Positions 10,815 through 58,503 of a stretch of DNA of 64,000 nt are shown piece after piece. Numbering within the stretch: position 1 is the stretch's first letter; every line of letters begins with the position of its first letter. The translations under genes were made by a program, and so were the position numbers. This DNA comes from a virus. Lineage: Duplodnaviria; Caudoviricetes. The notes under the pieces were generated by a model. The model saw only the letters and a program-made list of their open reading frames with translations, searched no databases and had not been told where the DNA came from. The stretch is taken from IMG/VR virus record IMGVR_UViG_3300013121_000047, positions 96,001-160,000 of that record. One strand, 5' to 3'.

Positions 10815-11289
10815 GAATCTCTCTTTTTTGTTCTCTGTTAAGAGTTGTTAAGTCAAATAAAGTTTTACCTTCCAAATGAGACAATTCATGTTGAACAACA
10901 ACAGAAAAATCTTCATCTAAATCTTCAATAACCTCATTTGTTCTATTAAAATATTTAATAGAAATTAATTTATGCCTTTTTATTGGAAGATAAATTCCTG
11001 GAATAGAAAGGCAACCTTCGGTGGTTATAACACATTCTTCAGATTTATCGATTATTTCTGTGTTAAAGAACGTTTCAAATTCTGAAAATTTTTCTCGTTT
11101 TGCTATAAATAAATGATCAGATAATCCAATTTGAACAGACGCTAAACCAACTCCTTTTGAGCTATTACAGACTGTTTTCATTAGTTCAATTTTTTCTTTA
11201 TACAACTCAGGTTTATAATTTTTTGTGTCAATTTTTATTCCACATTTACCTTTTATTTGTTTAAAATTAAGAGGTTTATTTGTCATCAT
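10801..11289 (-). CDS. def: Peptide deformylase
   Basis: GVGLASVQ, EGCLS and QHELSH motifs. Confidence 0.93.
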   Translation of the reverse strand: MMTNKPLNFKQIKGKCGIKIDTKNYKPELYKEKIELMKTVCNSSKGVGLASVQIGLSDHLFIAKREKFSEFETFFNTEIIDKSEECVITTEGCLSIPGIYLPIKRHKLISIKYFNRTNEVIEDLDEDFSVVVQHELSHLEGKTLFDLTTLNREQKREILKKI

Positions 11290-13405
11290 TTAAAATTTCT
11301 CCTAGTTCTGATATTTTCATTACAGTTTGTTCATTAGATCTATCAATGTTTAACGCAAGTTTTCTTATTTCACGTTTCTGCATTATTTTATCCTGCATTT
11401 TAAACTCGGTACCAGAATCAGCGACAATATAGTAACAATAAACAGGTTTTGTTTGAAGAGTTCTATGTAGCCTTGCATTACGTTGGTCTATTTTAGCTGG
11501 GTTCCATGGTATCTCTGTATGAATAACAACATTGCTGACCGTTTGTAGACCATCCAATCCAGTTCCGCCTGCATCAGAAGAAAGGAATATTTTTGTTAGC
11601 GGATCTGTTTTAAACTGTTCTACGAGTTTTGGTCTTTGTTTTGTTGGTACGTCGCCCGAATAAATAACATAGTTTATATTACTAAATTCTTTATTTATCA
11701 TTCTTTCGATAATAGAAAGCATTTCAGTCCATTCTGAAAACAGAACTATTTTTTCATTTTTATTAACACAATGGTCTAATATTATTTTTTTAACTTCTTC
11801 GATTTTTGGTTCAAGGTAATTTTTTTGAGTTTTATCTAAAAGTTCAGACGCAGTACATGCTTGTCTTGCCTTTAGCAGATAAGCATTTAATAAAATCTGT
11901 TCGTGTGGTTTTAAAGGTTTTTCCATTCCTTTTTTTAAAAGTTTGTCTGCCATTGCTCTATAGTTTGCTTCAACTTCTTGTTGTTCTTGTGATAGTTTTA
12001 TATAAAGCGTTGATTCAGTTAATGGAGGGAGTTTTTTTCTCAATTCTTCTTCTGATATAGAGAAAACACAGTGTTGAATTTTTTTATGAAGTAAATCGAT
12101 ATTCTTAATTCCATTGTATGTTATTTTGTGTTTGGTTGCGGCAATAACTCGTTGAAAATCTCGATCAAATTTCCATTTTGGTCCAAGCATATTGTCGTCG
12201 ACAACCTGCATTGTATTGTACAAATCATCAAGTCGATTTTCAATAATAGTTCCTGATAGGCCAAGAAAATACTCTGATTTTAATTTCTTAATAGCTTTCC
12301 AAGTTTTTGTTTCACTGTTTTTAACAGTTTGCAACTCGTCTACAATTAACATATCTGCAATTCTTCTTGTTTTTTTACCTTCCCCAATTAAATCATCAAT
12401 ATATCTTGTCATCATATGATAGTTTATTACAGCTATTTGTTTTCCATTCCATTCTTTAATCTCTTTTTGAGATCCAAGAATAATCGCATCTAAACCAGTA
12501 AATCTTTTTATTTCTTTAACCCACTGTTGTTTTAATGTATTTGGAACAATTACAAACATTGTAAAATTCTCATCTAAGTCATGCAAATACTTAAACAGAG
12601 AAATAGAGGTTAGAGTCTTTCCGCTACCCGCTGGAAGCGCTACAATTGATTTTTTTGCGGCCAAACAATTCATAAAAATGTCTTTCTGATAATCAAAAAG
12701 ACTTATTCCTGGTACTATAGTTTCGAGCGTCTCTTTGATGTTAGTTTTCAATAACTTATCTTTTTCAAAATAAAATTTATTTAATTTGTCCAATTTTTCT
12801 AATTTCAATTCAGAATCTAACTTTACGTTTGCCGCAGAAGTTAGATAAACATCTAATATTTCAGCATGATCTACTAGCAGTTGCTTATGTTCTTTATTGA
12901 AGTCTTTTAACAACATCAACGTTTCTTCGTTATGATTTTTACCAGAAATTATAAACTGATTTTTGCAAAAATCATAATGGATAATTGTTTTTATTTTACT
13001 ATGATCCCTTTGAATTTTGTTTAATTCAATAAGGTGTTTGATTGCTGGTTCTTTATAATAATACTTAAAAATTCTATGCAATGCAGAAACGTGTTCGCAA
13101 AAATTAAGTTCATCTAAAATAAAATCTTGACAACCACAACTAACAGTAGCCAGATCAGGATTTGTAAATTCAACAGTTTGCTTTGAAATATTAATTTTTG
13201 TAGGAAAAGTTAAATCTAATTCATCAAAACTAACTTTATATTTTTTTCCCGTTGTTTGTTGAAAAATTTTCTTTTTTTCAATATCATCTGCCCTAACAGA
13301 TTCCTCGAAAGAAGAATACTGTTTTTCATTTTTTTCTTTATCTAAAGAGGGTAATTCGAATTCTACCATTAGTGTTAGGTAGCTATCTTTATCTATTTTT
13401 TTCAA
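11276..13405 (-). CDS. SWIM zinc finger-SNF2 family ATPase/helicase
   Basis: CGCQDF...CEH SWIM; GSGKT, DELQ, LSGTIIEN, DAGGTGL, QRNARLHR. Confidence 0.9.
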   Translation of the reverse strand: MKKIDKDSYLTLMVEFELPSLDKEKNEKQYSSFEESVRADDIEKKKIFQQTTGKKYKVSFDELDLTFPTKINISKQTVEFTNPDLATVSCGCQDFILDELNFCEHVSALHRIFKYYYKEPAIKHLIELNKIQRDHSKIKTIIHYDFCKNQFIISGKNHNEETLMLLKDFNKEHKQLLVDHAEILDVYLTSAANVKLDSELKLEKLDKLNKFYFEKDKLLKTNIKETLETIVPGISLFDYQKDIFMNCLAAKKSIVALPAGSGKTLTSISLFKYLHDLDENFTMFVIVPNTLKQQWVKEIKRFTGLDAIILGSQKEIKEWNGKQIAVINYHMMTRYIDDLIGEGKKTRRIADMLIVDELQTVKNSETKTWKAIKKLKSEYFLGLSGTIIENRLDDLYNTMQVVDDNMLGPKWKFDRDFQRVIAATKHKITYNGIKNIDLLHKKIQHCVFSISEEELRKKLPPLTESTLYIKLSQEQQEVEANYRAMADKLLKKGMEKPLKPHEQILLNAYLLKARQACTASELLDKTQKNYLEPKIEEVKKIILDHCVNKNEKIVLFSEWTEMLSIIERMINKEFSNINYVIYSGDVPTKQRPKLVEQFKTDPLTKIFLSSDAGGTGLDGLQTVSNVVIHTEIPWNPAKIDQRNARLHRTLQTKPVYCYYIVADSGTEFKMQDKIMQKREIRKLALNIDRSNEQTVMKISELGEILNDDK

Positions 13406-14438: not shown

Positions 14439-15755
14439 GTCAACTGCTCATAGCGTAACTATGAGCTTGCAAATAATAATTTCTTATTATTCACGTTTGG
14501 GGGATTGACGGTACCCTGTTCCAAGGATAAACTTGGAAATGATTGTTTCTTTTCTGATAAAAGAAACCTGTTTTTTATGTTTATTGCTGCATTAACATCA
14601 GAATGGATCTTTAGTTTACATTGATTACATCTATACATTCCCTTGTTTCTGCTTTCCTTGTTCTGGTTTTGGCAACCAGAACAAATTTGAGAAGTGTACA
14701 TGGGATTCACAAATTCAACAACAATTCCTTTTTGTTCTGCTTTATACTTTAATAATCCTTCAAATAACTTAAATCCCCAATTTGAAACTACTTTATTCGA
14801 TTTCTTGTTATATTTCTTGGGTTTGATTCTTGATAAATTCTCCAAAACATATGTTTTAACGTTTTCATTCTTAACAAGTTTCTTTGTTAAACAATGAAGA
14901 AAGTTCAAACTAAACCGCTTCTCTTTTCTGCTAATTCTTTTTAAGAACCTTTTTGCAGATCGAGTGCCTTTTGCTTGAAGTTTCCTTCTTAAATAGAAAT
15001 ACTTCCTCTTGTTTTTTCTTAATGGTTTTCCTGAAACCAATTCTCCTTCGCTTGTTGCGATAACATTTATTATTCCTCGATCCAAACCAACCATTTCTGT
15101 TCCTTTTGTTTCTTTTGTTTTATCAGATTCGAACAAAAAAGTAAAATAAAAGTGTTTTCCAATTTTTGATAAATAACCAGTTTTAAGAAGTTTCCAATTC
15201 TTAAAATAGTTTTCAATATAAGGATAAAAAGAAACAATCGTTTTAATTCTTTTATCAACAGAAGAAAGGGTCAATTGTTGGTTTCTGAGGGAAAAAGTTC
15301 TAACATCATAGCGAATGGAACTATGTTTCTTCTTTATTGGAACAGTTTTACTTCTTTTGCTTTTATTGGATTCGAGGGCTAAATCCCTTGCGGATTGAAT
15401 TAAAGCAGTTGGAAGACTTGGAAACAGTTTTTTTGATTTTTGATAAGAGTTGGAATGGGCAACTTTTTTTGAAGTTGATTTATTGGTTGAAGACCAATTA
15501 GAGTAAAAATTGAAACATTTAGAATACTCTTCCATTGTTTCAAGGAGTGTTTCTTTGTCCTTGTCGGACAAAGAAAGTTTTACTCTTAATGATCTTTGGA
15601 CCATACTTATACAAGTATAAAAGAAAATATCAAAAATGATACGAAATAATCATATTATTCCATTGTTAGAATTTTGGACGAGGTATTAAAAAACATATCG
15701 AAGAATAAACAAATGAATCTCATTCATCTCACGGAACAAGACCACCAGAGCTTGA
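14439..15755 (-). mobile_element. tnpB-only IS200/IS605-family (IS1341-like) element, copy A
   Basis: Right end CAAG-[CTCATAG...CTATGAG]-CAGT-TGAC; degenerate left end alignable to copy B; no tnpA. Left boundary approximate. Confidence 0.8.
14459..15604 (-). CDS. tnpB: TnpB RNA-guided nuclease
   Basis: RuvC D (GLDRG), E (VLENL), D (SDVNAA); CSGC/CNQC zinc ribbon. Confidence 0.92.
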   Translation of the reverse strand: MVQRSLRVKLSLSDKDKETLLETMEEYSKCFNFYSNWSSTNKSTSKKVAHSNSYQKSKKLFPSLPTALIQSARDLALESNKSKRSKTVPIKKKHSSIRYDVRTFSLRNQQLTLSSVDKRIKTIVSFYPYIENYFKNWKLLKTGYLSKIGKHFYFTFLFESDKTKETKGTEMVGLDRGIINVIATSEGELVSGKPLRKNKRKYFYLRRKLQAKGTRSAKRFLKRISRKEKRFSLNFLHCLTKKLVKNENVKTYVLENLSRIKPKKYNKKSNKVVSNWGFKLFEGLLKYKAEQKGIVVEFVNPMYTSQICSGCQNQNKESRNKGMYRCNQCKLKIHSDVNAAINIKNRFLLSEKKQSFPSLSLEQGTVNPPNVNNKKLLFASS

Positions 15756-20793: not shown

Positions 20794-22168
20794 GCAGAAG
20801 TCCCCTGACCTCGCTTGGCAGTCAGGGGATGAATGCGATTAAAATAAATTCTTTCTCGTTTCTTTTTTTGGTAACATTTTTCCATTTCTTTCTTATTCTT
20901 TCTACTATTCTAAATGAGTTTGTCTTCTTATAGGTTTAAACTCTATCCAACAAAAAAACAAGAATCCTTGCTTTTTTCTCAAATCTTTGTTTGTAAAAAC
21001 CTATACAACAAATTCCTTGAATTGAACAAAGAAAACTATAATAAAACCAAGAAATTTTATTCTTGTTTTGATCTTAATAAATTAATCAAATCCCTTGATT
21101 CTTCTACCTTAAACCTCAAAATCGTCAACTCCCAAGTTCTCCAAAATGTTTCAAAAAGAGTTTCTAAAAACATTTTTTCTTTCTTAAAAAGAAAGAAAAC
21201 CGATAAATCCGTGGGATTCCCAAGATTCAAATCCATAAAGAAATCACATGGTTCCTTCACTTTTCCTTCTCTTTCTGGTTGGAAACTTGATCCCAAAACT
21301 AAAACTTTAAATCTTAATAAGATTGGTTGCGCGGTGAACGTTAAGCTCCACCGCGAAATAATTGGAAAAATAAAAACCTGTTCCATAAATGTAAACTCCC
21401 TCGGAGAATGGTATGTTTCCTTTTCTGTAGATTCTCCAAACCAAAATCAACCTCTTGATTTGAATAAAGTCAAGAAAAAAGATTTAATTGGAATTGATTT
21501 AGGAGTTTCCAAATTTGCGGTTCTCTCGGATGATTCTGAAATTCAAAATCCAAGATTTTTAAGAGAAATTGAAAAGAAGAAAAACAAGATTTCTTCACAA
21601 CTTTCTAAAGCAAGAAATAAAAAAGATAATAAAACCTTCAAAAAGAAAATAAAAGTTCTTCGGAAGATAAATAAAAAGCTTCATAATCGAACAGAGAATT
21701 TTCTTCACCAAACTTCGTTTTGTTTAATAAACAAAACAGAATACAAAGTATTTGGCGTGGAAAAATTGAATGTTAAAAATATGTTAGGGAAAGCACCGAA
21801 GGTGCTTTCAAAAAATATTCAAGCAGTTTCCATGTCAAAGTTTTTGACAATGATGAAATACAAAGCCGAAAAAGCTGGTAAAGTAGTCATATTTGTTTCT
21901 CCAAATGGAACCTCCCAACAGTGTTCAAAGTGCTTAAAGAATCCAACAAAGAGAAAAGATTTAAGCATTCGGGTTCATGAATGTGAGTTTTGCGGGACAA
22001 AACTTGACAGGGATTTGAATGCAAGTTATAACATAAAAAGATTAACCCAAGAAAAACTAAATAATTTCTTGAAAAATAAAGACTCTAGGGCAATAGAGTT
22101 TTTCGAGGATTCAAAAGATTCTCGGATAGAAGCCCCCACCTTGCTTTCACAGGTGGGGGAGTTGTCAC
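20791..22168 (+). mobile_element. tnpB-only IS200/IS605-family element, copy C (different TnpB lineage)
   Basis: Left hairpin TCCCCTGAC/GTCAGGGGA (20801-20829); right end GAAG-[CCCCCACCT/AGGTGGGGG]-AGTTG-TCAC. Confidence 0.85.
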
Positions 22169-22179
22169 TCACAAAGTAG
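20914..22179 (+). CDS. tnpB: TnpB RNA-guided nuclease
   Basis: YRFKLYPT HTH, GFPRFKS, GIDLG, VEKL, TSQQCSKC..CEFC, DRDLNAS. Confidence 0.93.
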   Translation: MSLSSYRFKLYPTKKQESLLFSQIFVCKNLYNKFLELNKENYNKTKKFYSCFDLNKLIKSLDSSTLNLKIVNSQVLQNVSKRVSKNIFSFLKRKKTDKSVGFPRFKSIKKSHGSFTFPSLSGWKLDPKTKTLNLNKIGCAVNVKLHREIIGKIKTCSINVNSLGEWYVSFSVDSPNQNQPLDLNKVKKKDLIGIDLGVSKFAVLSDDSEIQNPRFLREIEKKKNKISSQLSKARNKKDNKTFKKKIKVLRKINKKLHNRTENFLHQTSFCLINKTEYKVFGVEKLNVKNMLGKAPKVLSKNIQAVSMSKFLTMMKYKAEKAGKVVIFVSPNGTSQQCSKCLKNPTKRKDLSIRVHECEFCGTKLDRDLNASYNIKRLTQEKLNNFLKNKDSRAIEFFEDSKDSRIEAPTLLSQVGELSLTK

Positions 22180-28896: not shown

Positions 28897-30420
28897 TTAA
28901 TCTCTTACCTCGTATTGAAATAAATCACCATATATTTTTTTCACTTCTTCAACCACATCTTTGCATTCGTTGATTACAACTTTATATCCTTCTTTAGCAA
29001 GACCTACCGCAAACAGTAGTTGCTGTGACTCTTCTATTAGATTAGATTCTTGTTTGTATGTAACTGAATCAAATTTAACAGCTTTTAATTTATCTTGGTT
29101 TTCATTTTTGAAAAATTTAATTTGTTCTTGCAAATGAAGTTTGTTTGACTCATCTGCGGCATTACTTATTTTTGAAGGCATATCAAGGTCTTTTGCAAAA
29201 ATGCCCAATGCTCTGCCATCTCGTGGCAAACAATTATGAACTGTACAATTCTCCAAAACATAAGATTCGTCTTCATCAACTTCTAAATTATAAACCAATC
29301 CATTGTAATATTCTTTTTCTGCAAAAATTAGTTTGTGTTTGCTAAAAGTATTTTCTACCGTAATCGTTGGCATAACAATTTTATCAGTCGATGTTAGTTC
29401 ATCGGCAACAATAAATAATTTCTTATTTTGTCTTTCAACTAAAACTGGGTGATTTGGAGTTAGTGGTGTACTTTTATTGTCAAATCCGCTAGATTTGATC
29501 ACAATCATTTCTCCATCGTATGGTTTAGCATAATTTTTTATTATTTTTCGATATCTTCCTTTATGTGTTAACACATAGTCTCCAACAGAAATTCTTACAA
29601 TTGGCTTTAATCCATTTTTGGTTTGTACTAATTGATTTGGTTTTAAACACGGACCGCCGAATCCATATCCATGTTTCAAGAATTTATTTCCAACTCTAGA
29701 GTCGGAACCTATTGCACTTAATACCGTATCTGGATTGCCTCCTGCTTTTTTAACAATATCTCCGACCATGTTGGCATATGCAATTTTTGTTGTTAAAAAG
29801 CAATTTAAACCAATTTTTGTAATTTCTGCTTCCAACGGAGTCATTCTTGCAAATTTGGGCTTATTAACAGTATGGGTTTCATATATCTCTTGCAGTAAAT
29901 CACCAGAAGCTTTATTTGCTTCGCCAATCAATACCATGTCTGGATTTTCTTGATCTCTTAAAATTGTACCTTGAGCAATAAATTCTGGATTATATGAAAC
30001 AACATAGTTTAATTCGAGTAATTCATTTTTAATCGAATCACAATATCCTGGCATTACAGTGCAGGTTATTACAAGATTTTTTTGAGTTTCTTGCCGTCCA
30101 ATTTCTTTTAATTTCTGAATTACACTGTCTACCTGCGCGTGACTGTATCGTCCGTCGGGCAGGGATGGAGTAGCAACAATTACAAAAAGTGTATCGGAAT
30201 GTTCTACGGCCTCTCTCATTGAGGTTGTGGCACGAAACTGCCTAGACTTATCCAATAAATCATTTAAACCAGGTTCAGAACTACGATATTGTTTTGTGTT
30301 TATTAAATCTACATAAGATTGATGTAGGTCAACACCTAATACATTATATCCATGTTTTTCTAAAGTTAGTGCAAAGCAAAGACCTAATTTTCCGATTCCT
30401 ATGATTGATAGTTTTTTCAT
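28897..30420 (-). CDS. ugd: UDP-glucose/GDP-mannose dehydrogenase with intein
   Basis: GIGKLG, YNPEF, GFGGP|intein|CLPRD. Confidence 0.88.
   Translation of the reverse strand: MKKLSIIGIGKLGLCFALTLEKHGYNVLGVDLHQSYVDLINTKQYRSSEPGLNDLLDKSRQFRATTSMREAVEHSDTLFVIVATPSLPDGRYSHAQVDSVIQKLKEIGRQETQKNLVITCTVMPGYCDSIKNELLELNYVVSYNPEFIAQGTILRDQENPDMVLIGEANKASGDLLQEIYETHTVNKPKFARMTPLEAEITKIGLNCFLTTKIAYANMVGDIVKKAGGNPDTVLSAIGSDSRVGNKFLKHGYGFGGPCLKPNQLVQTKNGLKPIVRISVGDYVLTHKGRYRKIIKNYAKPYDGEMIVIKSSGFDNKSTPLTPNHPVLVERQNKKLFIVADELTSTDKIVMPTITVENTFSKHKLIFAEKEYYNGLVYNLEVDEDESYVLENCTVHNCLPRDGRALGIFAKDLDMPSKISNAADESNKLHLQEQIKFFKNENQDKLKAVKFDSVTYKQESNLIEESQQLLFAVGLAKEGYKVVINECKDVVEEVKKIYGDLFQYEVRD
29233..29649 (-). 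mobile_element. Cis mini-intein (139 aa) in ugd
   Basis: CLKPNQLV start, TPNHP block B, VYNLEV...VHN end, +1 Cys; no endonuclease domain. Confidence 0.92.
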
Positions 30421-39408: not shown

Positions 39409-41592
39409 TTATTCTTCTTCTTCTTTTGATATTTCTTTTTTCATATATTCTTTAAATTCAAAGATTGTGATTGGTATCATTGTTTCAAGAATAGGAATTA
39501 AACTATTTAAAATTCTATAAAAAGTTACTTGAATTTCTCTTCTATCAAGAGAATTTGCATCTTTTTCGTATAAGATTTTTTTCGATTTTTCAATGTAGTC
39601 AGACGATAAATTATCAAAATAAATCATTAATTTTTTGTAAAATTGATTAAACTCGAATTTTTCGAATTTATCTACATATTCCTTATGAATATCAAGAAGT
39701 TTTTCTATTTCATCTTTGTTTGGGTCAATATTTATATTTTTTGGCATATCATAAAGATTACTTAGCAAATATTTTAAAGTATTTCTGATTTTTCTATAAT
39801 TTTGGCCCTGTTGCTCAAGCAATTCTTTTCCTATTGAAACATCTTCGCCAACTTCTTGCGAAATTGCCCAAAGTCTTAAAATGTCAATTCCATTCTGATT
39901 TACTACTACCAATGGATCTACAACATTGCCTTCTGATTTTGACATCTTTCTTTTATTTTCATCTAAAACAAATCCGTGAGAAACAACATTTTTTAAACAA
40001 GTTTCACCTTCAAGTAAGCACGATAATATATGTGAAGACTGAAACCATCCTCTGTGTTGGTCGCTTCCCTCAATAACAAAATCTGATTTTAGTTTTGGTA
40101 AGGTTTTATAAGTTAAACCAGAATCAAACCACACATCTAAAATATCTTGATACTTTTTAGTATTTTGTGAATTGCATTCAGAACATGTTGGTTTATATAA
40201 CTCATTGTACCATTCTTTAACTGAAGATACGTTAAGATCAAACAAGTTTTTAGTATTACATGAGAAACACTCATATTGTGGAATAGGAACACCCCAAGCT
40301 CTTTGTCTTGAAATGCACCATTCTGTTCTTGAATTTAAGAATGACTTAAATCTTGTTTTCGATTTTTTCGGAAAAAACTTAATTTTTTCTGCTTCTTCAA
40401 GAATTAAATTCTGTTTAAGTTTGTAATCAATAAAAACTTGTGATGTTGCATGTTGAATAAGTTCATTCTTACAACGCCAACAGTGAGGATATTCGTGTTC
40501 TATTTGCTCTTCTTTATAAAGATTATTTAGTCTATCTAATTCTTCAATGAAAGTTTTATTTGCTTTTTTATAAAAAAGATCCTCAATTTTACCATTTTCA
40601 TCTGTATAAGATTCAACTAAAGAATTTGGATATTCTTCTATGTATGCTACATAGTCTTCTTTTCCGCAGGACGGTGCAATATGCACAAAACCTGTACCAA
40701 CATTTTCTGAAACATAATCCGCATGAAAAAGTGGATAAGATTTATCTGAATGTTTAAATGTGTCGTAATATAATTGTTTAACTATTTCTTCTGATGAGAT
40801 AATATTCATTGGCTCAATAACGTTTAAAACGTTACGAGCAAACCATTTAGAAACAATGACATTTTTTCGCAAATCTTTTATTTTCAAAGAAGTATAAACA
40901 TATTCAATATTTTTATTGAAAGCAATTGCTCGATTTCCTTTAAGAGTCCAAGGAGTAGTTGTCCAAATTAAAAAATTAAGATTAGGATCATTTGCCAACG
41001 GATATAAAACATAACATGAGTTTGATGTGATTTTTTTATAATCTAATTCAGATTCAGCTAAAGATGTTTTACAACTATAACACCAATGAACTGGTTTAAA
41101 AGCTGTTTTAATAAAACCTTTTTTTACCAAAGTTTGAAACGCAGACAGTTCGTTATCCTCAAATGAGGAATCCATTGTCTTATAAAAATCCTTTATAAAA
41201 ATTCCAAGTTTTTCAAACTGTTCTTTTTGATTTTTTATTTGATTTTCCGCATAATGTCTAAATTTTTCTAATCCAGAACGCTCTTCTTTTAATTTATTGG
41301 CTGCTAATTCAATTGGTAGACCGTGGCAATCCCATCCACATTTATAGTGGATGTTTTTCTTTTGAAAGATTGTAAATCTATAGAAAATATCTTTTAAAAT
41401 TTTATTATATGCGTGGCCTACATGAATATTTCCGTTTGCATATGGGGGACCATCATGTAAAACTACATTGTAGTAATCCATTGGAAGATTTGTTGAAATC
41501 CAAGGATTTATTGCTAAAACTTTCTTTTGCAATTCTGGCAAATTAGCCCTCATAGGAAAATTAGTTTTAGGCAGATTGGTTTTACTTGTCAT
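39409..41592 (-). CDS. ileS: Isoleucyl-tRNA synthetase (compact, 727 aa)
   Basis: LPKTNFPMRANL, HDGPPYANG, HVGH, GWDCHGLP, WTTTPWT, WCISRQR, EGSDQHRGWF, KMSKS. Confidence 0.93.
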   Translation of the reverse strand: MTSKTNLPKTNFPMRANLPELQKKVLAINPWISTNLPMDYYNVVLHDGPPYANGNIHVGHAYNKILKDIFYRFTIFQKKNIHYKCGWDCHGLPIELAANKLKEERSGLEKFRHYAENQIKNQKEQFEKLGIFIKDFYKTMDSSFEDNELSAFQTLVKKGFIKTAFKPVHWCYSCKTSLAESELDYKKITSNSCYVLYPLANDPNLNFLIWTTTPWTLKGNRAIAFNKNIEYVYTSLKIKDLRKNVIVSKWFARNVLNVIEPMNIISSEEIVKQLYYDTFKHSDKSYPLFHADYVSENVGTGFVHIAPSCGKEDYVAYIEEYPNSLVESYTDENGKIEDLFYKKANKTFIEELDRLNNLYKEEQIEHEYPHCWRCKNELIQHATSQVFIDYKLKQNLILEEAEKIKFFPKKSKTRFKSFLNSRTEWCISRQRAWGVPIPQYECFSCNTKNLFDLNVSSVKEWYNELYKPTCSECNSQNTKKYQDILDVWFDSGLTYKTLPKLKSDFVIEGSDQHRGWFQSSHILSCLLEGETCLKNVVSHGFVLDENKRKMSKSEGNVVDPLVVVNQNGIDILRLWAISQEVGEDVSIGKELLEQQGQNYRKIRNTLKYLLSNLYDMPKNINIDPNKDEIEKLLDIHKEYVDKFEKFEFNQFYKKLMIYFDNLSSDYIEKSKKILYEKDANSLDRREIQVTFYRILNSLIPILETMIPITIFEFKEYMKKEISKEEEE

Positions 41593-45834: not shown

Positions 45835-47850
45835 CTAGTCAATCTCCTCTGGGAAAAGAAAATCACAAACTTCAACAAGTGACGCTAAATTTCCAAGACT
45901 CGCAGATAATCCATATTTATTTTTCACAATTGTCCCACAATATACTTCATATAATGGAAATCTTCCTATCACATCTTCTGAAAATTCTCCCCAAATTTTA
46001 ACAATCAAATCAGAAAATTTCTCTCCAATTACAGCAAGTTCTAAAAACGGCTTTCCATTTTTTGAGGTTTTAGGTTCCATTTTTCTTAAAATAAACCAAA
46101 CTTGATCGGTAATTTTTGTATTTTCGCCCTCTTCTAAAAAGTCAATGTCGCGTATTCCATCTACACTTTTAAGTTTCATCTTTTCAATTGATTTTGAATA
46201 TTTTTCACTTAAAATTAAGCTAAGGTCAGCGCTCCCAGCTAATTCAACCCAATATTTTATTTTTTCGTTCTTGGTCCAATCTTCGGTGTTGGCCAATTTT
46301 TCTTTTTGAACCAATTCATCAAGAATAGGAACTATATCATTATTTTTCTTTTTCGCAGATGTGCGTTTCAATAAATCAAAATTTTCAACGATAACGTTAT
46401 ACGCTTGTTTATAGTTTTGAACGCCATTTTCTTTATCTGAAATAAAATTTAAACTATCGAGAGCTTCAAGACAAATTAGGTTTGTTAAAGCTTTTCTATT
46501 AAACTTAGAATGTTTCCATTTACCTTCTTCGTTAACCAATAAATCTTTTATATCCTTGTAGGGTTTGTTTTTATTAATTTCCTCAAGAGCAGCATCACCA
46601 ATTCCATCAATTGTTGTTAAACCTGGGATGATAACTTTTTCCTTCGTTGGATGCATTTCATACCCAGCACTTGAAAAGTTAATATCTGGTTTTGAAAACT
46701 TATAACCTAACTTCTGGGCTTCCCTCATTGCAGTTGCTTTTGGATCTTCTTGACCAACAACCTTTCCTTTTTCTAAGGCGGCATAATCTAAACACGCTGT
46801 GATCCATTCATCTGGATAGTATGTCAAAAACCAACAACACTGATAAGTCGCAATAGAATAAGAAATTGCGTGGGACATGTTAAAGGAATATGATACCAAA
46901 GATTCCATTTTATCGAAAAAGATCGAAGATCTCGCCGAATCCATACCTGCAAATTGCTTTGTTTTTTCGATGAATTCAGTCTTTAATTTTTCGCGTTCCT
47001 TCGCTGCTTTTTCTTTATTATTAATTTCTTTTTTAGTAAACGCTTTTCTAACCGAGTCTGTTTCATCTAACGGAACGCCACAAAGATGGTGATAAATTAG
47101 TTGTAATTGTTCCTGAAAAATAAGAAGTCCGCTTGTTGGTTCCAATACTTCTTTTAAGAAAGGGTGTTCATATTTAATTTTTTCTGGATTTGCTCTATTG
47201 TTCAAAAAGTCTCTATCTACTTTTAATCCCAAAGGACCAGGACGGTGAATAGAAGTTGCAATTGAAATATCTTTCACGGATACAGGTTTCATTCTTCTCA
47301 TAAAATCTTGAGTGTTTGGTTTTACAAACTGAAAAATAGAAATAAAGTTTCCATTCCAAAAAACATGTTTATAGACATTAATATCATCCATTGGATTTTT
47401 ATCAGGGGACAGGTGTTCATAAAACCATTTTTGAACTTCTTCAAAAGGTATTTCTGACTCAAGTCTTCCTGTTTGTTTTTTGAGAATTTTTCTAACTGTA
47501 TTCTCAAAAATTCTTAAAGTACCTAATGCTAGGAAGTCAAACTTTAAAAAACCAAAATGTTCTAACATACGAAAGTTAACACCCTCGGTCCACGGTGTCT
47601 GTAGCGACCTTTTGTCACCTTTGCCGCCAATCACCAGAGGCATATTTTGTTTTTCGATCGGCGAGTCCGTGAGGACCACGCCGCCAGCGTGCCGACCGCA
47701 ATTTGAAATTAATCCAGCTTCGGTTAGGATATTAGGCTGGTCGTCAATAAAAGCTCCTGTAGGAATATTGTGGTGAATATCATAGACCAGTTTTTTTCCT
47801 ATTTTTTGTATAGATTTTATCTTGTTATATTCCATTTTATTAAAGCTCAC
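45835..47850 (-). CDS. dnaE: DNA polymerase III alpha, C-terminal piece: IntC (50 aa) + 621 aa extein
   Basis: VYDI...LISN|CGRHAGGVV, LKFDFLAL, IFQF, RPGP, IFQEQ, YSFNMSHA, GIG HhH, OB-fold tail. Confidence 0.93.
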   Translation of the reverse strand: MSFNKMEYNKIKSIQKIGKKLVYDIHHNIPTGAFIDDQPNILTEAGLISNCGRHAGGVVLTDSPIEKQNMPLVIGGKGDKRSLQTPWTEGVNFRMLEHFGFLKFDFLALGTLRIFENTVRKILKKQTGRLESEIPFEEVQKWFYEHLSPDKNPMDDINVYKHVFWNGNFISIFQFVKPNTQDFMRRMKPVSVKDISIATSIHRPGPLGLKVDRDFLNNRANPEKIKYEHPFLKEVLEPTSGLLIFQEQLQLIYHHLCGVPLDETDSVRKAFTKKEINNKEKAAKEREKLKTEFIEKTKQFAGMDSARSSIFFDKMESLVSYSFNMSHAISYSIATYQCCWFLTYYPDEWITACLDYAALEKGKVVGQEDPKATAMREAQKLGYKFSKPDINFSSAGYEMHPTKEKVIIPGLTTIDGIGDAALEEINKNKPYKDIKDLLVNEEGKWKHSKFNRKALTNLICLEALDSLNFISDKENGVQNYKQAYNVIVENFDLLKRTSAKKKNNDIVPILDELVQKEKLANTEDWTKNEKIKYWVELAGSADLSLILSEKYSKSIEKMKLKSVDGIRDIDFLEEGENTKITDQVWFILRKMEPKTSKNGKPFLELAVIGEKFSDLIVKIWGEFSEDVIGRFPLYEVYCGTIVKNKYGLSASLGNLASLVEVCDFLFPEEID

Positions 47851-48259
47851 GCTCTAGAGTTAGTTTCTCAACTTTTCCTTTATTTAGCTCTATCTTATAG
47901 GCAAATAATTCGATTCTATCGTATCCAATTCCATATGAGCAATACAATGTAGTCTTTGTATTCTTTTGAAGTCCAGTAATCGAAATCCAAAAACTTTCGT
48001 AATCTCGAAGAATATCACATTGTTCTGCTAATAAAAATTCATATCCTTCAACTATAGAGTCTTCCCCTAAAGATCTGCAAAGAATACCATATTCAATGGT
48101 ATCGTTTTCAACATGAATATAGTAATCATCTAAATTTTCAAGGAAAAGTAGTTTGTTATTATAATGAATTTCTTTTTCTTTTAAGATTTCTAATTTATCT
48201 AAAAACAAACAATAAAGTTGTTCAATTTGAGAAATAACTACTTTCTTACTTATATCCAT
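47840..48259 (-). CDS. Hypothetical protein separating halves of split intein 3
   Basis: Overlaps both dnaE pieces; LKEKE...NNKLLFLE shared with 52493-52915. Confidence 0.6.
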   Translation of the reverse strand: MDISKKVVISQIEQLYCLFLDKLEILKEKEIHYNNKLLFLENLDDYYIHVENDTIEYGILCRSLGEDSIVEGYEFLLAEQCDILRDYESFWISITGLQKNTKTTLYCSYGIGYDRIELFAYKIELNKGKVEKLTLEREL

Positions 48260-49437
48260 CCTATAAGGGAATCCTTTTCAGTTAAATCTTTAACTTGTTT
48301 CCAACCTTTATCTGTTTGAACTAGATGATCTTCAGTAAGTTCAACAGTTTTACCATTTTCTACTTGAATTTTATAGACTTCTTTTTCTCCGTTTTCAACT
48401 TTAAAAAAGTCAGAACTATATTGAACTTCTCCAACATTGTCAACATAAGCAAGTTTATCCATTTCAGAAATATCTGAATATTTTTTCCACCCAGAGTTTG
48501 TTAACAATAAAGTTGCTTCTGTAAAACAAGACTTAATCTGTTTAAACAAGACCTTAATACTTGCTTCTAGTTGTGGATAATCTTCTAGCAATTGGTTAAA
48601 TGTTGGTGAATTTTTCGCCGCACTTTCATAAGAAAGAAACCACACACCACGATCAAATCCATCTTGTTTCTTGTCTTCGTCTAAAGTTTCTTTTTCAATT
48701 TTTTGAGTAATTGGATTAATAATTTCAAATGGAATTTGATATAATCTCGCCAGGTCTTTTATAAGAGATTTTAATTGAAGTTGGTTGTAGTTTGAAACAG
48801 GAAGCACGGATTCTTCTCCAAAATGTTCAGTTAATATTTTGATTGCCTCTTCTCTGTCTGCGCAATCGCTATTGTGACTCACGATTTCAGTTCCTACCGA
48901 CGAATAAATAACAAAATAAGAACCATCGACGGTTATATCAACAACGCTTACTTCTTCGCATGTAGATGGATTAAATCTTAATATATCTGATATAATACAT
49001 CCTTTAGAAGAATCTGTATTCAATAACTGTGTATCTTTTTTAAGATCTTTAATCTTAATATCTACTCCAAATTCATTTGGCAATCTATGGTTTTCGGTTG
49101 CTATGATGAAATCATTTTTTGAATTGAAATAAATCTGAAATAAAGGCTCATTATAATTTAATTTCCTTGTTTTCGTATACAATACTTTTCGTAAAAAACC
49201 TGATGGATCAATGATAAAATCACCAGGAATTAATTCTGATATAGGAATTTTACCTTTAGGAGTTTTTACCAATGTCGAAGGTATTAAACAATCTATATCA
49301 GGCAAAGAATTATGTGTTAAAAAAAATTTACCATCAATTTTATCACTGACATAAAATGTTTGATCATTCTCTATTCCAATATCTATTAAAAGAATAGGAG
49401 ATTCAGATTCTATCACTTTTATTTTTTTGATCTTCAT
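48250..49437 (-). CDS. dnaE: DnaE piece: IntC(43)-SLPDID-cis intein(140)-extein(114)-IntN(92)
   Basis: LTHN|SLPDID|CLIP...TENH...VSHN|SDCADR...KQIKS|CFTE...TEDH; lengths sum to 395. Confidence 0.92.
   Translation of the reverse strand: MKIKKIKVIESESPILLIDIGIENDQTFYVSDKIDGKFFLTHNSLPDIDCLIPSTLVKTPKGKIPISELIPGDFIIDPSGFLRKVLYTKTRKLNYNEPLFQIYFNSKNDFIIATENHRLPNEFGVDIKIKDLKKDTQLLNTDSSKGCIISDILRFNPSTCEEVSVVDITVDGSYFVIYSSVGTEIVSHNSDCADREEAIKILTEHFGEESVLPVSNYNQLQLKSLIKDLARLYQIPFEIINPITQKIEKETLDEDKKQDGFDRGVWFLSYESAAKNSPTFNQLLEDYPQLEASIKVLFKQIKSCFTEATLLLTNSGWKKYSDISEMDKLAYVDNVGEVQYSSDFFKVENGEKEVYKIQVENGKTVELTEDHLVQTDKGWKQVKDLTEKDSLIGWI
48871..49290 (-). mobile_element. Cis mini-intein inside the DnaE PDIDxD motif
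   Basis: C1, ATENH block B, VVDITV block F, SHN|S. Confidence 0.9.
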
Positions 49438-50338
49438 ATTTTACGACTAGTTCCTTTGATTTTTTATAGTTTCTTTGTTCAAGATTTGGAATCTTCAACC
49501 AAATTTCTGCTAATTTTAAGCCAGCAATAAATTCCTTCTGTGTTATTGTGATAATATTAAAATCAGCAGCAACAACGCTTTGTTTTGATAAATTTTTTGT
49601 CATTAAAATTTCAAAAGGTTTACCCGTATTTTCGACACCTTTTAATTCTACAAATAAATTCAAGTCTGGAAGAAAAAAATCTGGTGTATATGCTCCATTT
49701 TTAGTTGGAAACGTTTTAGATTCATATCGATATTTTATGTTAAAAAAATTAAGAACTCTTGCAAAATCTGCTTCTAGTGCACTTTTAAAATAATCACTAA
49801 ATCCTAAATCAATTCTATATCCTGTTCTTCCATTTAAATGGATTTTAATTTTTCCATTAGATTGATCAGTAAATTGACATTTTCTACTACAACGAATGAT
49901 ATGATTATCAGATTTTTTAACTTGAAATATTTTTTTACATGTTACACAAATTTTCGTTATTCTATTAGAATTATTAAAACATTCTCTTGAACAATATAAT
50001 TTGTTAATTCGACTAGGTTTTGCTTTAAATGCTTTGTTACAATTCAAACAAATTTTTATTATTGTTTTTATTTGGCTATTGTTTTTACAAATTATAGAAC
50101 AAAATGTTCTATTGCTACTTGTATAGGTTACAAACTGTGTATTACAATAATTGCATTTTTTATTAATTTTTCCCTCTTCTTTCTTTCTACCGAAAAGGTT
50201 TTTACATTTTTCTGTGCAAAATACTCTTCTTAAACAATTTCTGTTTCCGCGACTTTTTATTTCGGGTACAGTTATTAAAAACTGAGTTTTGCATTCTTTA
50301 CAAGATTTCAATAAATTCGTCTGTATTTTTGATTTCAT
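49403..50338 (-). CDS. Free-standing endonuclease (zinc-ribbon repeats + PD-(D/E)xK) between halves of split intein 2
   Basis: Four CxxC...F/YCSxxC repeats; [25 protein letters not shown]. Confidence 0.8.
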
Positions 50339-50789
50339 CTGCTCTTAATTCTTTCCGAATACCTTCACGAAGCACAATCCATAAATGATTTGGACTACTT
50401 TTTAAAATTGTACCATTGTCAAGTTCAAAAACTATTATTCTATTATGAAACGAATTTTCTTTATGAACCACAGGTTTATAAGTTTGAGTATGTGTAAGAA
50501 CCATATCTCCAATATTTACATTTTTTAATTGTTTAACTTCATGTTGTGTTTTTATATAGGTATCAGGGGGTAAACACATTTTTTTCTTGCTCAAAAATCT
50601 TTCAAACAACAATCCATGTTTTATTGGGTCCACCTGGGTAATTCCTAAGAGGTAACAAACTAAAGATCCTGCGCCTGAATTATGAACAGGGATTCCTTCA
50701 ACATTGTAAGAAGACTTGTTTTCAACAGAAAGATCATATACTTTACCAGTATATCTTTTATATGTTTTTGATTTTAGTTTTATTGTCAT
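50298..50789 (-). CDS. dnaE: DnaE piece: IntC(37)-extein(34)-IntN(92)
   Basis: VYDLSV...VHN|[18 protein letters not shown]...LLFERFL..M|CLPP...SPNH. Confidence 0.92.
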
Positions 50790-53819: not shown

Positions 53820-55137
53820 TGAGCAGAAAACTTATGGCTTTATGCCATGAGTTGAATGCGATTCATTTGTTTATTTTTCAATATAATTTCTTAATGCCTC
53901 ATCTGAGACTCCAACTATCGATTATTATGTATCATTTTTAATATTTTCTTTTATACTTGTAAATCATGATCCAAAGATCATTAAGAGTAAAACTTTCCTT
54001 GTCTCCAAAAGACAAGGAAACACTCCTTAAAACGATGGAAGAATATTCTAAATGTTTTAACTTTTACTCTAATTGGTCTTCTGTTAACAAATCAACCTCG
54101 AAAAAGGTTGCCCATTCCAATTCTTATCAAGAATCAAAAAAACTATTTCCAAACCTACCAACTGCTTTAATTCAATCTGCAAGAGATTTGGCTCTTGAAT
54201 CCAATAAAAGCAAAAGAAGTAAAATGGTTCCAATAAAGAAAAAACACAGTTCCATTCGTTATGATGTTAGAACTTTTTCCTTTCGAAATCAACAATTAAC
54301 CCTTTCTTCTGTTGATAAAAGAATTAAAACAATCGTTTCTTTTTATCCTTATATTGAAAACTACTTCAAGAATTGGAAACTGCTGAAAACTGGTTATTTG
54401 TCAAAGGTTGGAAAACACTTTTATTTTACTTTTTTGTTCGAATCTGATAAAACAAAAGAAACCCAAGAAACAAAAGGAACGGAAACTGTTGGTTTGGATC
54501 GAGGAATAATAAACGTTATCGCAACAAGTGAAGGGGAATTAGTTTCAGGAAAACCATTAAGAAAAAACAAGAGGAAGTATTTATATTTAAGAAGGAAACT
54601 TCAAGCAAAAGGCACTCGGTCTGCGAAAAGATTCTTAAAAAGAATAAGCAGAAAAGAGAAGCGGTTCAGTTTGGATTTTCTTCATTGTTTATCAAACAAA
54701 CTTATCAAGAATGAAAACGTTAAAACATATGTTTTGGAGAATCTTTCAAGAATTAAACCCAAAAAATACAACAAGAAATCAAATAAAGTAGTTTCAAATT
54801 GGGGATTCAAGTTATTTGAAGGATTATTAAAGTACAAAGCAAAACAAAAAGGAATTAATATTGAGTTTGTTGATCCCATGTATACTTCCCAAATTTGTTC
54901 TGGTTGCCAAAACCAGAACAAAGAAAGTAGAGATAAGGGAATATATAGGTGTAGTGTTTGTAAACTAAAGATTCATTCTGATATTAACGCGGCAATGAAC
55001 ATAAAAAATAGGTTTTCAAAACCTCAAAAATTATCTTCAAGTTTGTCCTTGAAGCAGGTTGTAGTCAATCAACCAAACGCGAATAATGAGTAATTATTGT
55101 TTGCAAGCTCATAACATAAAAACTGTGAGCAGTTGAC
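53820..55137 (+). mobile_element. tnpB-only IS200/IS605-family element, copy B
   Basis: Left TGAGCAGAA-hairpin-TGAATGCGATT; right CAAG-CTCA...TGAG-CAGT-TGAC; TnpB highly similar to copy A. Confidence 0.85.
53966..55093 (+). CDS. tnpB: TnpB RNA-guided nuclease
   Basis: GLDRG, VLENL, CSGC/CSVC, SDINAA. Confidence 0.92.
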   Translation: MIQRSLRVKLSLSPKDKETLLKTMEEYSKCFNFYSNWSSVNKSTSKKVAHSNSYQESKKLFPNLPTALIQSARDLALESNKSKRSKMVPIKKKHSSIRYDVRTFSFRNQQLTLSSVDKRIKTIVSFYPYIENYFKNWKLLKTGYLSKVGKHFYFTFLFESDKTKETQETKGTETVGLDRGIINVIATSEGELVSGKPLRKNKRKYLYLRRKLQAKGTRSAKRFLKRISRKEKRFSLDFLHCLSNKLIKNENVKTYVLENLSRIKPKKYNKKSNKVVSNWGFKLFEGLLKYKAKQKGINIEFVDPMYTSQICSGCQNQNKESRDKGIYRCSVCKLKIHSDINAAMNIKNRFSKPQKLSSSLSLKQVVVNQPNANNE

Positions 55138-56793: not shown

Positions 56794-58503
56794 TTATGAC
56801 TGGTTTTTTGTCGTGTCAAGTGTGAGCCGCGCGAGGGTGCCCATTACGATTAGGTTAGCAGTTGTCCAAACAAACATTGCAAACCAACCAAAAGGAGCGG
56901 AATGAAGACCTGAAACAAATGTTCCAAGTAAGTATCCTGCTGTACCGAGCGAGAACCCACCAATAGCAGGTCGCAAGTTTTTACGACTGTAGAACATTGC
57001 AGCTAATGCAATTGGCAGGAAAGCGCTTCCAAGCGGCAAGAACTGGTGAATAAAACTATTTGTAAACATAGTCAAGTCACCAGGCGGTCTTGAAATTATT
57101 TCAAGACCAGGAATTGAACTTGGTAAGAACCAAGGAAGGAAAAACAAACCAACAGAAGAGATTAGTGCAGGAGCAATCCACTTTTGCGGAGATTCAAGTT
57201 TTCCTTTCTTTTGTTTGATTAACGTTGAAACAATTCCAAGCATCAACAGAAGAGACAAACCTCGGTAAACAACTTGTCTGTTTTTAATTCCAGACAAAGC
57301 AGATTCTGCACTCGCAATTCCAGCACCATACAATTCGGGGTTTGAATCTCCATGTTGCGGAGTTTGTGCAGTTGATCTTAAAATACGTTCAACTGAATCT
57401 ACGTTTGTAACACCTTGAGACATTATCAATGCTGCAATTCCTGCAACGTGCGGGGTAGCCATTGAAGTTCCAGACCATGCCGCAAATTGTTCGCAACCAC
57501 CTGTTCCATGTTCGCAAATTGTTTGTTGGAGAATATTAACTCCAGGGGCAGCAATATCTACTTCTGGTCCTCTTGACGAGAATTGAGCAATTGTATCACC
57601 TTCGCCAATTGCACTTACAGCAAAGGCACCCTCTTCGTTTGCGGGAGATTCAACATATCTCCCATTGTTTCCCGCGGCACAAATTACAACCGTACCCTTT
57701 GAACGGGCATAAGCAATAGCTTCTGCCATTACTCGGTTTCTCGGGCCACCACCTAATGAAAGGTTGATAACATGGGCACCTTGATCGGCAGCGAATCGGA
57801 TACCTTCCGCAACATCGACAAGCGAACCAGAACCTCTGTAGTCGAGGACTTTGACAGGAATAATTGTTGCACAGTGTGCAATTCCCGCTACACCAATTCC
57901 ATTGTTTGTTGACTGCGCAATTGTTCCCGCAACGTGCGATCCGTGCCCTTGATCGTCATTTGCGTGTTCGTCGTCGTTTACAAAATCCCAACCAGCAACA
58001 CAGTTTGTTGTTTTAAGATCGGAAAGTTGTGTAAACTCTCCGTATGTTTCACAAGCAACACCAGTATCAATTACGGCGACTCTAATACCTCGTCCACAGG
58101 TTGTATTCCACGCGCGTTCCACACCAACGCGATGCAATCCCCATTGACGAGAATATTGCGGATCATTTGGCGTGAAAAAAGCGTGCATTTCTTGGTTTTG
58201 ATCTGCCGCTTGCACGTTTCGATTTGTTTGAAGTTGTCGCACAATACGTTGTCCAACGTCCTGTGGAGCACTAAAAACATAAATTCGATCTTCTCCAACC
58301 ATTCGAGGACTGTTTGCCCTCAAACTAATTCCATATTGGGAAGCGACTTCATTGACCGTTTCTTGAGAAACGGAATCGTTAAAGTCCACTACGAATTCGT
58401 CTTGCTGTGGATGATTTACTCCACCGAAAGTTTGAGCTTGAGCACTTACCGAAGCAAGCATTAGAGCCAAACCGCACGAAAGCATCACCGTTTTTGTTTT
58501 CAT
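56794..58503 (-). CDS. Subtilisin-like S8 serine protease with signal peptide and C-terminal TM domain
   Basis: VIDTG, HGSHVAG, AAGN, GTSMATP; 4-5 C-terminal TM helices. Confidence 0.92.
   Translation of the reverse strand: MKTKTVMLSCGLALMLASVSAQAQTFGGVNHPQQDEFVVDFNDSVSQETVNEVASQYGISLRANSPRMVGEDRIYVFSAPQDVGQRIVRQLQTNRNVQAADQNQEMHAFFTPNDPQYSRQWGLHRVGVERAWNTTCGRGIRVAVIDTGVACETYGEFTQLSDLKTTNCVAGWDFVNDDEHANDDQGHGSHVAGTIAQSTNNGIGVAGIAHCATIIPVKVLDYRGSGSLVDVAEGIRFAADQGAHVINLSLGGGPRNRVMAEAIAYARSKGTVVICAAGNNGRYVESPANEEGAFAVSAIGEGDTIAQFSSRGPEVDIAAPGVNILQQTICEHGTGGCEQFAAWSGTSMATPHVAGIAALIMSQGVTNVDSVERILRSTAQTPQHGDSNPELYGAGIASAESALSGIKNRQVVYRGLSLLLMLGIVSTLIKQKKGKLESPQKWIAPALISSVGLFFLPWFLPSSIPGLEIISRPPGDLTMFTNSFIHQFLPLGSAFLPIALAAMFYSRKNLRPAIGGFSLGTAGYLLGTFVSGLHSAPFGWFAMFVWTTANLIVMGTLARLTLDTTKNQS

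Follow-up and report, generated by a model that had tools for sequence, protein, structure and literature searches.

The dnaE gene of a huge phage of the Caudoviricetes, which encodes a replicative DNA polymerase, is divided among four separately encoded pieces (P1 to P4) in IMG/VR record IMGVR_UViG_3300013121_000047. The window is the 64,000-nucleotide (nt) stretch that we analyzed, bases 96001-160000 of this 185,441-bp virus record (~30% G+C, CheckV completeness 51%), and the dnaE block occupies its positions 45835-50789. We propose, with a probability of about 0.82, that the only recognisable replicative polymerase of this phage is made as four polypeptides that are joined post-translationally by three split inteins, together with one intein that is removed in cis. 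The architecture of the genes, their colinearity with intact polymerases, their conservation and the polymorphism of the insertion sites among relatives were observed directly.

Polymerase pieces flanked by intein halves

Five closely packed open reading frames (ORFs) on the minus strand, most of them overlapping, fill positions 45835-50789. Three carry polymerase sequence (exteins) next to N-terminal or C-terminal intein halves (IntN and IntC). P2 (50298-50789, 163 amino acids (aa)) consists of an IntC of 37 aa, an extein of 34 aa and an IntN of 92 aa. P3 (48250-49437, 395 aa) is built from an IntC of 43 aa, the six residues SLPDID, a contiguous cis intein of 140 aa, an extein of 114 aa and an IntN of 92 aa, and P4 (45835-47850, 671 aa) from an IntC of 50 aa and an extein of 621 aa. 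These three layouts had been proposed from the letters of the DNA and its translations (the sequence-only reading), and their coordinates, strand and segment lengths were all exact when the proteins were cut at the named motifs. For the IntC of P4, the length of 50 aa holds from the GTG at 47850, but the start is probably the ATG at 47835 (MEYNKIK...), giving 45 aa, because the ORF of a relative with a 391-kb genome starts at the aligned Met and because this ATG directly follows the stop of the preceding ORF. The other two ORFs of the block encode 311 aa (49403-50338, minus strand), overlapping P2 by 41 nt and P3 by 35 nt, and 139 aa (47840-48259, minus strand), overlapping P3 by 10 nt and, if the GTG start is used, P4 by 11 nt.

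The PHP domain and positions 1-55 of the Pfam profile DNA_pol3_alpha (PF07733) do not occur in the window. When the whole record was searched in six frames, they turned up at a single place, P1 (genome 160934-162790, corresponding to L005:541-2397, minus strand), which is 14,144 nt upstream of P2 on the same strand and would occupy window positions 64934-66790, just past the window end. The 618 aa of P1 comprise the PHP domain (PF02811, E 8.6e-25) and the start of the palm; the polymerase part stops at ...LLGAGRG and is followed by a 95-aa IntN (IntN-a, CFLPGTKV..., block B TKDH). No further PF07733 match besides P1-P4 was found by the six-frame search in the 185 kb of the record. The earlier count of at least four polypeptides therefore stands as to the four, which become exactly four once P1 is added, and not as an open-ended number. 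As had been noticed from the sequence, both middle pieces (P2 and P3) are flanked by inteins at both ends, so that three trans and one cis splicing events would be needed for one enzyme.

Read along the minus strand, the block begins with IntC-a (50679-50789, 37 aa), which ends VHN before a Ser at +1 and has its IntN partner on P1. Extein 2 (50577-50678, 34 aa, SGAGSLV...SKKKM) belongs to the palm and corresponds to E. coli Pol III alpha residues 364-397 in a PDB alignment. It is followed by IntN-b (50298-50576, 92 aa and a stop codon), which starts CLPPDTY and has the block B SSPNH. IntC-b (49309-49437, 43 aa) ends THN, again with Ser at +1. Between it and the cis intein lies a micro-extein of six residues, SLPDID (49291-49308), that holds two catalytic aspartates, the equivalents of E. 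coli D401 and D403; the sequence SLPDIDSDC is unbroken in the 391-kb relative (L011) and in intact homologues. Next come the cis mini-intein c (48871-49290, 140 aa, CLIPSTL...IVSHN, block B ATENH, +1 Ser), extein 3b (48529-48870, 114 aa, SDCADRE...KQIKS, palm) and IntN-d (48250-48528, 92 aa and a stop codon, CFTEATL..., block B LTEDH), which matches the Spl DnaX mini-intein in the PDB with E 3.4e-5. IntC-d (47701-47850, or from 47835 with the probable start) ends ISN before a Cys at +1, and extein 4 (45835-47700, 621 aa) supplies the end of the palm with the third catalytic Asp (KFDFL), the fingers, HhH and the C-terminal region. A further insertion site known from relatives, site e (YSFNM/SHA at 46876/46875; a slash marks the insertion point), lies within extein 4 and is unoccupied here.

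The halves of the three split inteins lie on separate ORFs, each fused in frame to an extein, with lengths of 95/37 (a), 92/43 (b) and 92/50 or 92/45 (d) aa. Naturally split inteins have an IntN of ~88-105 aa and an IntC of ~33-54 aa (Dassa et al. 2009, NAR 37:2560; PMC2677866), and the a, b and d halves match these ranges.

The product spliced in silico aligns with intact polymerases

Judged by its domains, the locus encodes a DnaE-type (C-family) replicative polymerase alpha subunit, with PHP, palm, fingers and HhH in order. The three extein stretches in the window are colinear on PF07733 (positions 56-111, 111-170 and 204-260; E 1.6e-14, 2.2e-7 and 1e-4), and P4 continues with the fingers (PF17657, E 1.8e-30) and then HhH (PF14579, E 1.6e-11). 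Chance cannot account for matches of this strength. Extein 4 is colinear with residues 502-891 of the E. coli structure 2hnh (E 4.2e-38).

Removal of the four inteins in silico leaves a protein of 1298 aa. It aligns to the uninterrupted 1227-aa DnaE of a 260-kb IMG/VR contig (L008) in one BLASTP segment (3-1277 versus 6-1218, 47% identity), with 48.8% identity over the MAFFT alignment. In a four-way alignment with the DnaE sequences of L008, L007 and L011 all junctions are gapless and each lies between conserved residues: GRG/S (a), KKK(M/K/A)/S (b), PDID/S (c) and KQIKS/C (d; KQMRG/L in the intact homologue). Based on alignments to solved structures, the equivalent points in E. coli Pol III alpha are 363/364 (a), 397/398 (b), 403/404 (c) and 507/508 (d). 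Aligned with the solved E. coli and Thermus enzymes, the spliced product keeps the three catalytic aspartates (PDID at its residue 560, KFDFL at 730), and the C-terminal ~200 aa align to phage homologues only.

The proposed colinearity with E. coli DnaE was thus borne out against E. coli and Thermus Pol III alpha as well as an intein-free phage homologue, and the suggested check, to splice in silico and align, returned a single alignment block with no gap at any junction. The site of the cyanobacterial split intein (Y/CFNKSH; E. coli 754/755) had been described as uninterrupted; it does read YSFNMSH here, and all occupied sites lie elsewhere. No cultured relative was found, the phage records in INPHARED giving only distant DnaE homologues (<28% identity).

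Splicing motifs, pairing and selection

In the proposed scan for HINT domains, motifs were found at all eight intein ends, and Pfam Hint or Intein_splicing matches fall on the flanks of P2-P4. All four inteins begin with Cys1 (CFLPGT in a, CLPPDT in b, CLIPST in c, CFTEAT in d). Their block B motifs (T/SxxH) fall in one alignment column (TKDH, SPNH, TENH and TEDH, in the same order), and each has a terminal Asn followed by a nucleophile at +1 (VHN/S, THN/S, SHN/S and ISN/C). By motif all four elements classify as class-1 inteins and are predicted to splice.

Pairwise identity among the four inteins is only 15-22%, and a distance of this kind among the three split pairs is what orthogonal pairing would require. 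The same-site inteins of the 391-kb relative are 77% (a) and 84% (d) identical. Split intein b is 59% identical to the split site-b intein of another relative, L007, and 38% to the cis site-b intein of L011. The closest solved structures by sequence are the NrdJ-1, gp41-1 and Spl DnaX inteins, of which NrdJ-1 and gp41-1 belong, as split inteins from metagenomes, to the fractured-gene family.

For the predicted IntN-a/IntC-a complex the interface score (ipSAE) was 0.60, the best control scoring 0.00, with contacts agreeing by at least 81% between runs and a partner pLDDT of at least 55. In the benchmark of this score 58 of 80 solved complexes and 2 of 110 mismatched pairs reached the mark, with only 7 of those 80 and both passing mismatches at or below 0.60; as the complex was predicted from alignments of our own these counts are only a rough guide, and the score may reflect mere likeness to solved split-intein complexes.

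Selection was evaluated by comparing the window with the 391-kb relative, whose exteins are 82% identical and which shares split inteins a and d. The nonsynonymous divergence (pN) of the halves of these two inteins (0.045-0.164) falls in the same range as that of the exteins (0.042-0.172). For individual segments, identity to the relative and pN are 91% and 0.062 for IntC-a, 96% and 0.042 for extein 3b, 83% and 0.109 for IntN-d, and 90% and 0.045 for IntC-d. The exteins are 74-97% identical although synonymous sites are saturated (synonymous divergence, pS, 0.50-0.72), and there are no stops or frameshifts in any dnaE piece. The halves of inteins a and d are thus kept as strictly as the polymerase itself, which speaks for a function of these halves rather than for decay or a role as leftover docks.

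Occupancy of insertion sites among relatives

Across relatives, the five insertion sites (a-e) are empty, occupied by a cis intein or split in many combinations, and DnaE is encoded in anything from one piece to five. All five sites are empty in L008, L009 and L010 (exteins ~49% identical). The exact junctions are proven because sites are empty in relatives. Only site b is occupied in L007, which has the layout of a classic fractured gene (IntN, a 320-aa nuclease, IntC). Site c is empty in L011, L007 and L008, and homologous cis inteins occupy it in L021, which has a further combination of occupied sites, and in L022.

The 391-kb genome (G001/G002; L011/L006) has terminal repeats. In it site a is split with P1 ~15.6 kb away, b holds a contiguous 178-aa intein, c is empty, d is split with a 151-aa ORF, and e is split (YSFNQ/SHA, the equivalent of E. 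coli 758/759). Like the phage studied here, it has four dnaE genes with three split inteins and one cis intein, splits a and d being orthologous. The two differ at the other sites: b is split with a nuclease gene in the window and contiguous in the relative, c holds a cis intein in the window and is empty in the relative, and e is empty in the window and split in the relative. A single dnaE set was found in this complete relative; a family-B polymerase is absent, and family A is represented only by a sub-threshold fragment.

Other relatives extend the series. L022 has five pieces, that is, four split sites (a; b with a nuclease; d; e with another ORF) and a cis intein at c. In L023 sites a, c and d are occupied, c being split, and in L019 sites a and b, the latter with a nuclease. 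The halves of a are adjacent in L024, with a PD-ExK ORF between them, and its site b is split with an 8-nt gap. In L025, whose DnaE is only ~23% identical, breaks occur at a, b and e, and an ORF of 306-366 aa fills each gap; split a is likewise in the adjacent form with a PD-ExK ORF. In a protein search, double-ended pieces of the P2 type (IntC-a, 34-aa extein, IntN-b) formed at least 10 clusters at 46-79% identity. As the layout recurs in relatives, we conclude that it is neither accident nor artefact.

Two of these relatives show unusual inteins. In L023 (2737-4112) the break in the site-c intein is atypical, with a 145-aa N-part that ends ...LHTYNK, a 36-nt gap and then an 18-aa C-part, MIEYYSCLQKKLTLTSHN, before SDCADRE. 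Either a late split or the disruption of a cis intein may account for this. In L022 (10032-11841) the site-e intein begins with Ser (SLKSNTK...), not Cys, and the zinc-finger-rich ORF that follows it is probably another homing endonuclease.

Passenger genes in the split gaps

In the gap of split b, the 311-aa ORF encodes a series of repeated CxxC zinc ribbons and, after them, a T7-endonuclease-I-like PD-(D/E)xK nuclease domain. It matches PDB 1m0d (E 2.6e-4) with the catalytic E, PD and ExK aligned (LE, TPDF and VELKG), and PHROG endonuclease/resolvase families. Its score of 22.4 bits is below the gathering threshold of Pfam PF05367 (29.1), so it is a distant relative and by the Pfam rule no member of that family. 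Homologues form 35 clusters, and those examined all sit in DnaE site b; the 320-aa nuclease in the same gap of L007 is 63% identical. We best read the 311-aa ORF as a predicted homing endonuclease of site b. A Vsr-like identity, as in the loci of Dassa et al. (2009), was considered and rejected, as there was no Vsr match and T7 endonuclease I matched best. The layout of split b is that of a fractured gene, with IntN and IntC adjacent on one strand, a free-standing nuclease gene between them and an overlap of 35 nt (49403-49437) between the nuclease ORF and the IntC ORF. Split a lacks this adjacency, with many genes in the 14,144 nt between its halves.

A related arrangement was seen in L010, where a 275-aa ORF (1180-2007) with a terminal YTPDF...VEIKG nuclease motif like that of the 311-aa ORF lies directly upstream of the uninterrupted dnaE and overlaps it. 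It looks like a free-standing endonuclease beside an intein-free target gene.

The 139-aa ORF in the gap of split d has no Pfam or PHROG match and no nuclease signature. It is fast-evolving (31-32% identity, pN 0.476), and a profile search of 1.84 billion representatives places only three members in its family, all between IntN-d and IntC-d. No homology to it could be detected for the passenger ORFs at site d of L022 and L023 (hhalign probability 2.6% and 0.1%). Kinship with a 160-aa ORF upstream of P2 was rejected (BLASTP E 9.7), and so was a nuclease identity, there being no family match and the Atlas model having a pLDDT of 0.51 with every feature match below 0.9. The ORF may encode a homing factor that is new or degenerate, or be a hitch-hiker. 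Separately, positions 93-119 (27 residues) of its profile are matched in 11 separate stretches of the repetitive 762-aa protein P0103 (E 5.3e-9), a repeat that resembles the most conserved part of the 139-aa ORF.

Support from independent assemblies and RNA libraries

The stretch was found, whole or in part, in 20 public runs of 10 studies; the labelled runs are from sludge, activated sludge, wastewater and aquatic or freshwater sources. Where the sequence-only reading had asked for support across the block, positions 45.5-51.4 kb are covered by DNA contigs from two other studies, and each ORF border lies within a contig. The pieces show 0-2 mismatches each, except for one of 1,684 nt (X7, 45908-47591) with 30. 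Near-identical layouts were assembled independently in L022, L021 and L011/L006.

A 1,774-nt contig from two wastewater RNA libraries runs colinearly from IntN-b through the nuclease gene and IntC-b to the cis intein, with nothing skipped. RNA-library contigs span only parts of the block, and those of run X17 have nothing at 47864-48651. An RNA intron joining the ORFs had been named as an outcome that would undo the splicing model; no Rfam family was found in the block at E up to 0.1, and joining at the RNA level was rejected on this ground. No terminator-like site was found within the dnaE block. The absence of an intron or terminator is consistent with co-transcription of P2-P4.

Matches resembling sigma-70 promoters in the block are not above shuffles (23 versus 28 +/- 5). 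The top match (48415-48443, minus strand, TTGACA-17-TATAGT, 11/12) lies within the coding sequence of IntN-d and ~155 nt upstream of the 139-aa ORF. The passenger and P4 could be expressed separately from it, but the total count of matches is not above chance.

Populations vary at two sites. A variant without cis intein c has ...SHN-SLPDID joined directly to SDCADRE, with a loose end at 48872. An RNA-library contig of run X17, from a 90-95% identical relative, has 1,404 extra bases exactly at site e (46875/46876; window 46875-46903); site e is thus polymorphic in wastewater populations.

Proposed mechanism and alternative explanations

In the mechanism that we favor, P1-P4 would be translated separately and each IntN would pair with its own IntC, the pairs being unrelated enough for orthogonality. 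Each pair would fold into a HINT domain and perform class-1 splicing by means of Cys1, the block-B His, the terminal Asn and the Ser or Cys at +1. Mini-intein c would excise itself in cis, and the product would be a seamless polymerase of ~1298 aa. The breaks would be scars of selfish elements, inteins and homing-endonuclease genes that homed into conserved motifs of the palm and fingers. An endonuclease-I-like gene would remain in the gap of split b, the fast-evolving 139-aa ORF lies in that of split d, and split a would have been pulled 14.1 kb apart. A more far-reaching idea, which we hold only tentatively, is that the three orthogonal split inteins and the near cis intein are a natural co-evolved set acting in one cell, possibly in an obligatory order. 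Assembly of the active site, with PDID on a 6-aa micro-extein, might then be a post-translational checkpoint for timing or gating replication, and the site states among relatives might be a living series from cis to split.

Several points weigh against splicing as proposed. Splicing itself, its orthogonality, the order of events and the activity of the spliced enzyme are what we infer from sequence, and RNA-library contigs are no proof of transcription. With net charges of -8 for IntN-a and -7 for IntN-d, and of +4 and +1 for their IntC partners, both IntN halves are acidic and both IntC halves basic, so that electrostatics alone would not stop cross-pairing. Synonymous divergence is saturated, which makes dN/dS (the ratio of nonsynonymous to synonymous rates) a rough value only. 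Splicing would have to proceed in unusual surroundings, next to an extein of 6 residues between two inteins and one of 34 residues between two intein halves. Such short exteins could hinder the chemistry, and one could envisage that at least one intein pair serves as a high-affinity dock only, the polymerase working as a non-covalent multi-subunit complex with its inteins retained. We consider this unlikely: every catalytic residue of the four inteins is intact and pN of the a and d halves is as low as in the exteins, whereas in dead remnants one would expect Cys1, Asn or the +1 nucleophile to be gone. Moreover, sites b and c flank PDID, and a retained intein of ~135-140 aa would occupy the active site.

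It could also be that dnaE is decaying, shattered by mobile elements, and that the phage copies its DNA with Pol III of the host or some other polymerase. With its TnpB genes and further inteins this genome is rich in selfish elements, and the record is only 51% complete, so that the absence of a second polymerase holds for the complete relative and not for the missing half here. The sequence-only reading had named an intact dnaE elsewhere, with these pieces decaying, as a finding that would overturn it; none was found in the 185-kb record, and the pieces show no sign of decay. We regard decay as very improbable given exteins that are free of stops and frameshifts, 74-97% identical and at pN 0.04-0.17 despite saturated synonymous sites, intact catalytic motifs, a complete relative without another replicative polymerase and a layout that recurs in many lineages. 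Least credible of all is an artefact or joining at the level of nucleic acid, by chimeric assembly, introns or recoding. This is a metagenomic assembly, and population polymorphism at sites c and e could confuse assemblers, but contigs of two independent studies tile the block and bridge all borders, and the same layouts appear in L022, L021 and L011/L006. There is no Rfam intron, the inserts are HINT domains in frame with the exteins, and the RNA-library contig keeps the intein-coding DNA.

Relation to known split inteins

Fractured genes of environmental phages were described by Dassa et al. (2009, PMC2677866): a gene for an enzyme of DNA metabolism is interrupted by a split intein, its two halves lie on the same strand, and the free-standing endonuclease gene between them overlaps the IntC ORF with its 3' end. 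Among them were three DnaE loci on fragments from the Global Ocean Sampling (GOS) that were too short to show the whole gene, with three different insertion points, none the cyanobacterial one; DnaE-1 had part of an additional intein. Split b of the window (IntN, 311-aa nuclease, IntC) is a textbook case of this type. Compared by description, the present locus differs from those loci in having three split sites and a cis intein in one complete gene, with two middle pieces spliced at both ends. One of its pairs is 14.1 kb apart rather than adjacent, one gap holds an ORF that is not nuclease-like, and its nuclease is akin to T7 endonuclease I, not Vsr-like. We take the locus to be a multi-site form of fractured genes, in which such breaks co-occur in one gene. 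This suggests that the three fractured DnaE loci of 2009 may be parts of multi-fractured genes.

The split DnaE intein of cyanobacteria (Ssp/Npu; Wu, Hu & Liu 1998, as cited in PMC2677866) has separately encoded halves that splice in trans and may lie far apart. The window is similar in the enzyme family, the trans-spliced halves and, for split a, their distance. In cyanobacteria there is one split site (754/755), which is uninterrupted here; the nearest phage site, e (758/759), is four residues downstream and empty in the window, and the inteins are not closely related. Trichodesmium DnaE has two cis inteins in addition to the split one. Bacterial Pol III alpha has several intein sites, clustered in catalytic motifs, of which only one, the cyanobacterial point, is reported to carry split inteins (Novikova et al. 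2016, PMC4760082). With one split point, those bacterial enzymes are made of at most two polypeptides.

The sequence-only reading knew of no characterised natural case of this depth. The fractured DnaE of Dassa et al. is a precedent, however, and L022 is deeper than the window. In the literature searched, of which coverage was incomplete, we found no natural protein built by two or more split inteins and no inteins in the DnaE of huge (jumbo) phages. The locus would require three trans events and one cis event for an essential enzyme, with up to four trans events in relatives; among described natural proteins we found none for which a second trans event is required.

Engineered orthogonal split inteins can ligate at least three fragments in a set order in one cell (Pinto et al. 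2020, PMC7090010). That system is synthetic, whereas the set in the window appears natural and co-evolved on an essential enzyme. Multi-fragment ligation calls for such sets, and this one, with Cys1/Ser+1 and Cys1/Cys+1 split inteins that are presumably orthogonal, would be available already co-selected by nature. The 6-aa and 34-aa exteins, bounded by inteins on both sides, are extreme test cases of dependence on extein context. The matrix of site occupancy (empty, cis, split with or without a nuclease gene, or kilobases apart) makes the origin of split inteins testable by comparison and reconstruction.

Other features of the phage genome

Intein-like domains also occur outside dnaE. A UDP-glucose/GDP-mannose dehydrogenase gene (window 28897-30420, minus strand) has an in-frame Hint domain at about residues 257-390, which by its sequence is another intein, in a non-replication enzyme. 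An Intein_splicing match outside the window (G000:C1:170357-170701, minus strand) lies within a 300-aa frame. The complete relative G001 has extra IntN-like matches at 351550-351852 and 387250-387468.

Three TnpB/Cas12f-like genes (OrfB_IS605 and TNB domain) are present in the window at 14459-15604 (minus strand), 20914-22179 (plus strand) and 53966-55093 (plus strand); one of the three is inside the 14-kb stretch between the halves of split intein a. The window also encodes, all on the minus strand, a class-I aminoacyl-tRNA synthetase (39409-41592, E 2.5e-90), a SNF2-family helicase (11276-13405) and an S8 subtilase (56794-58503).

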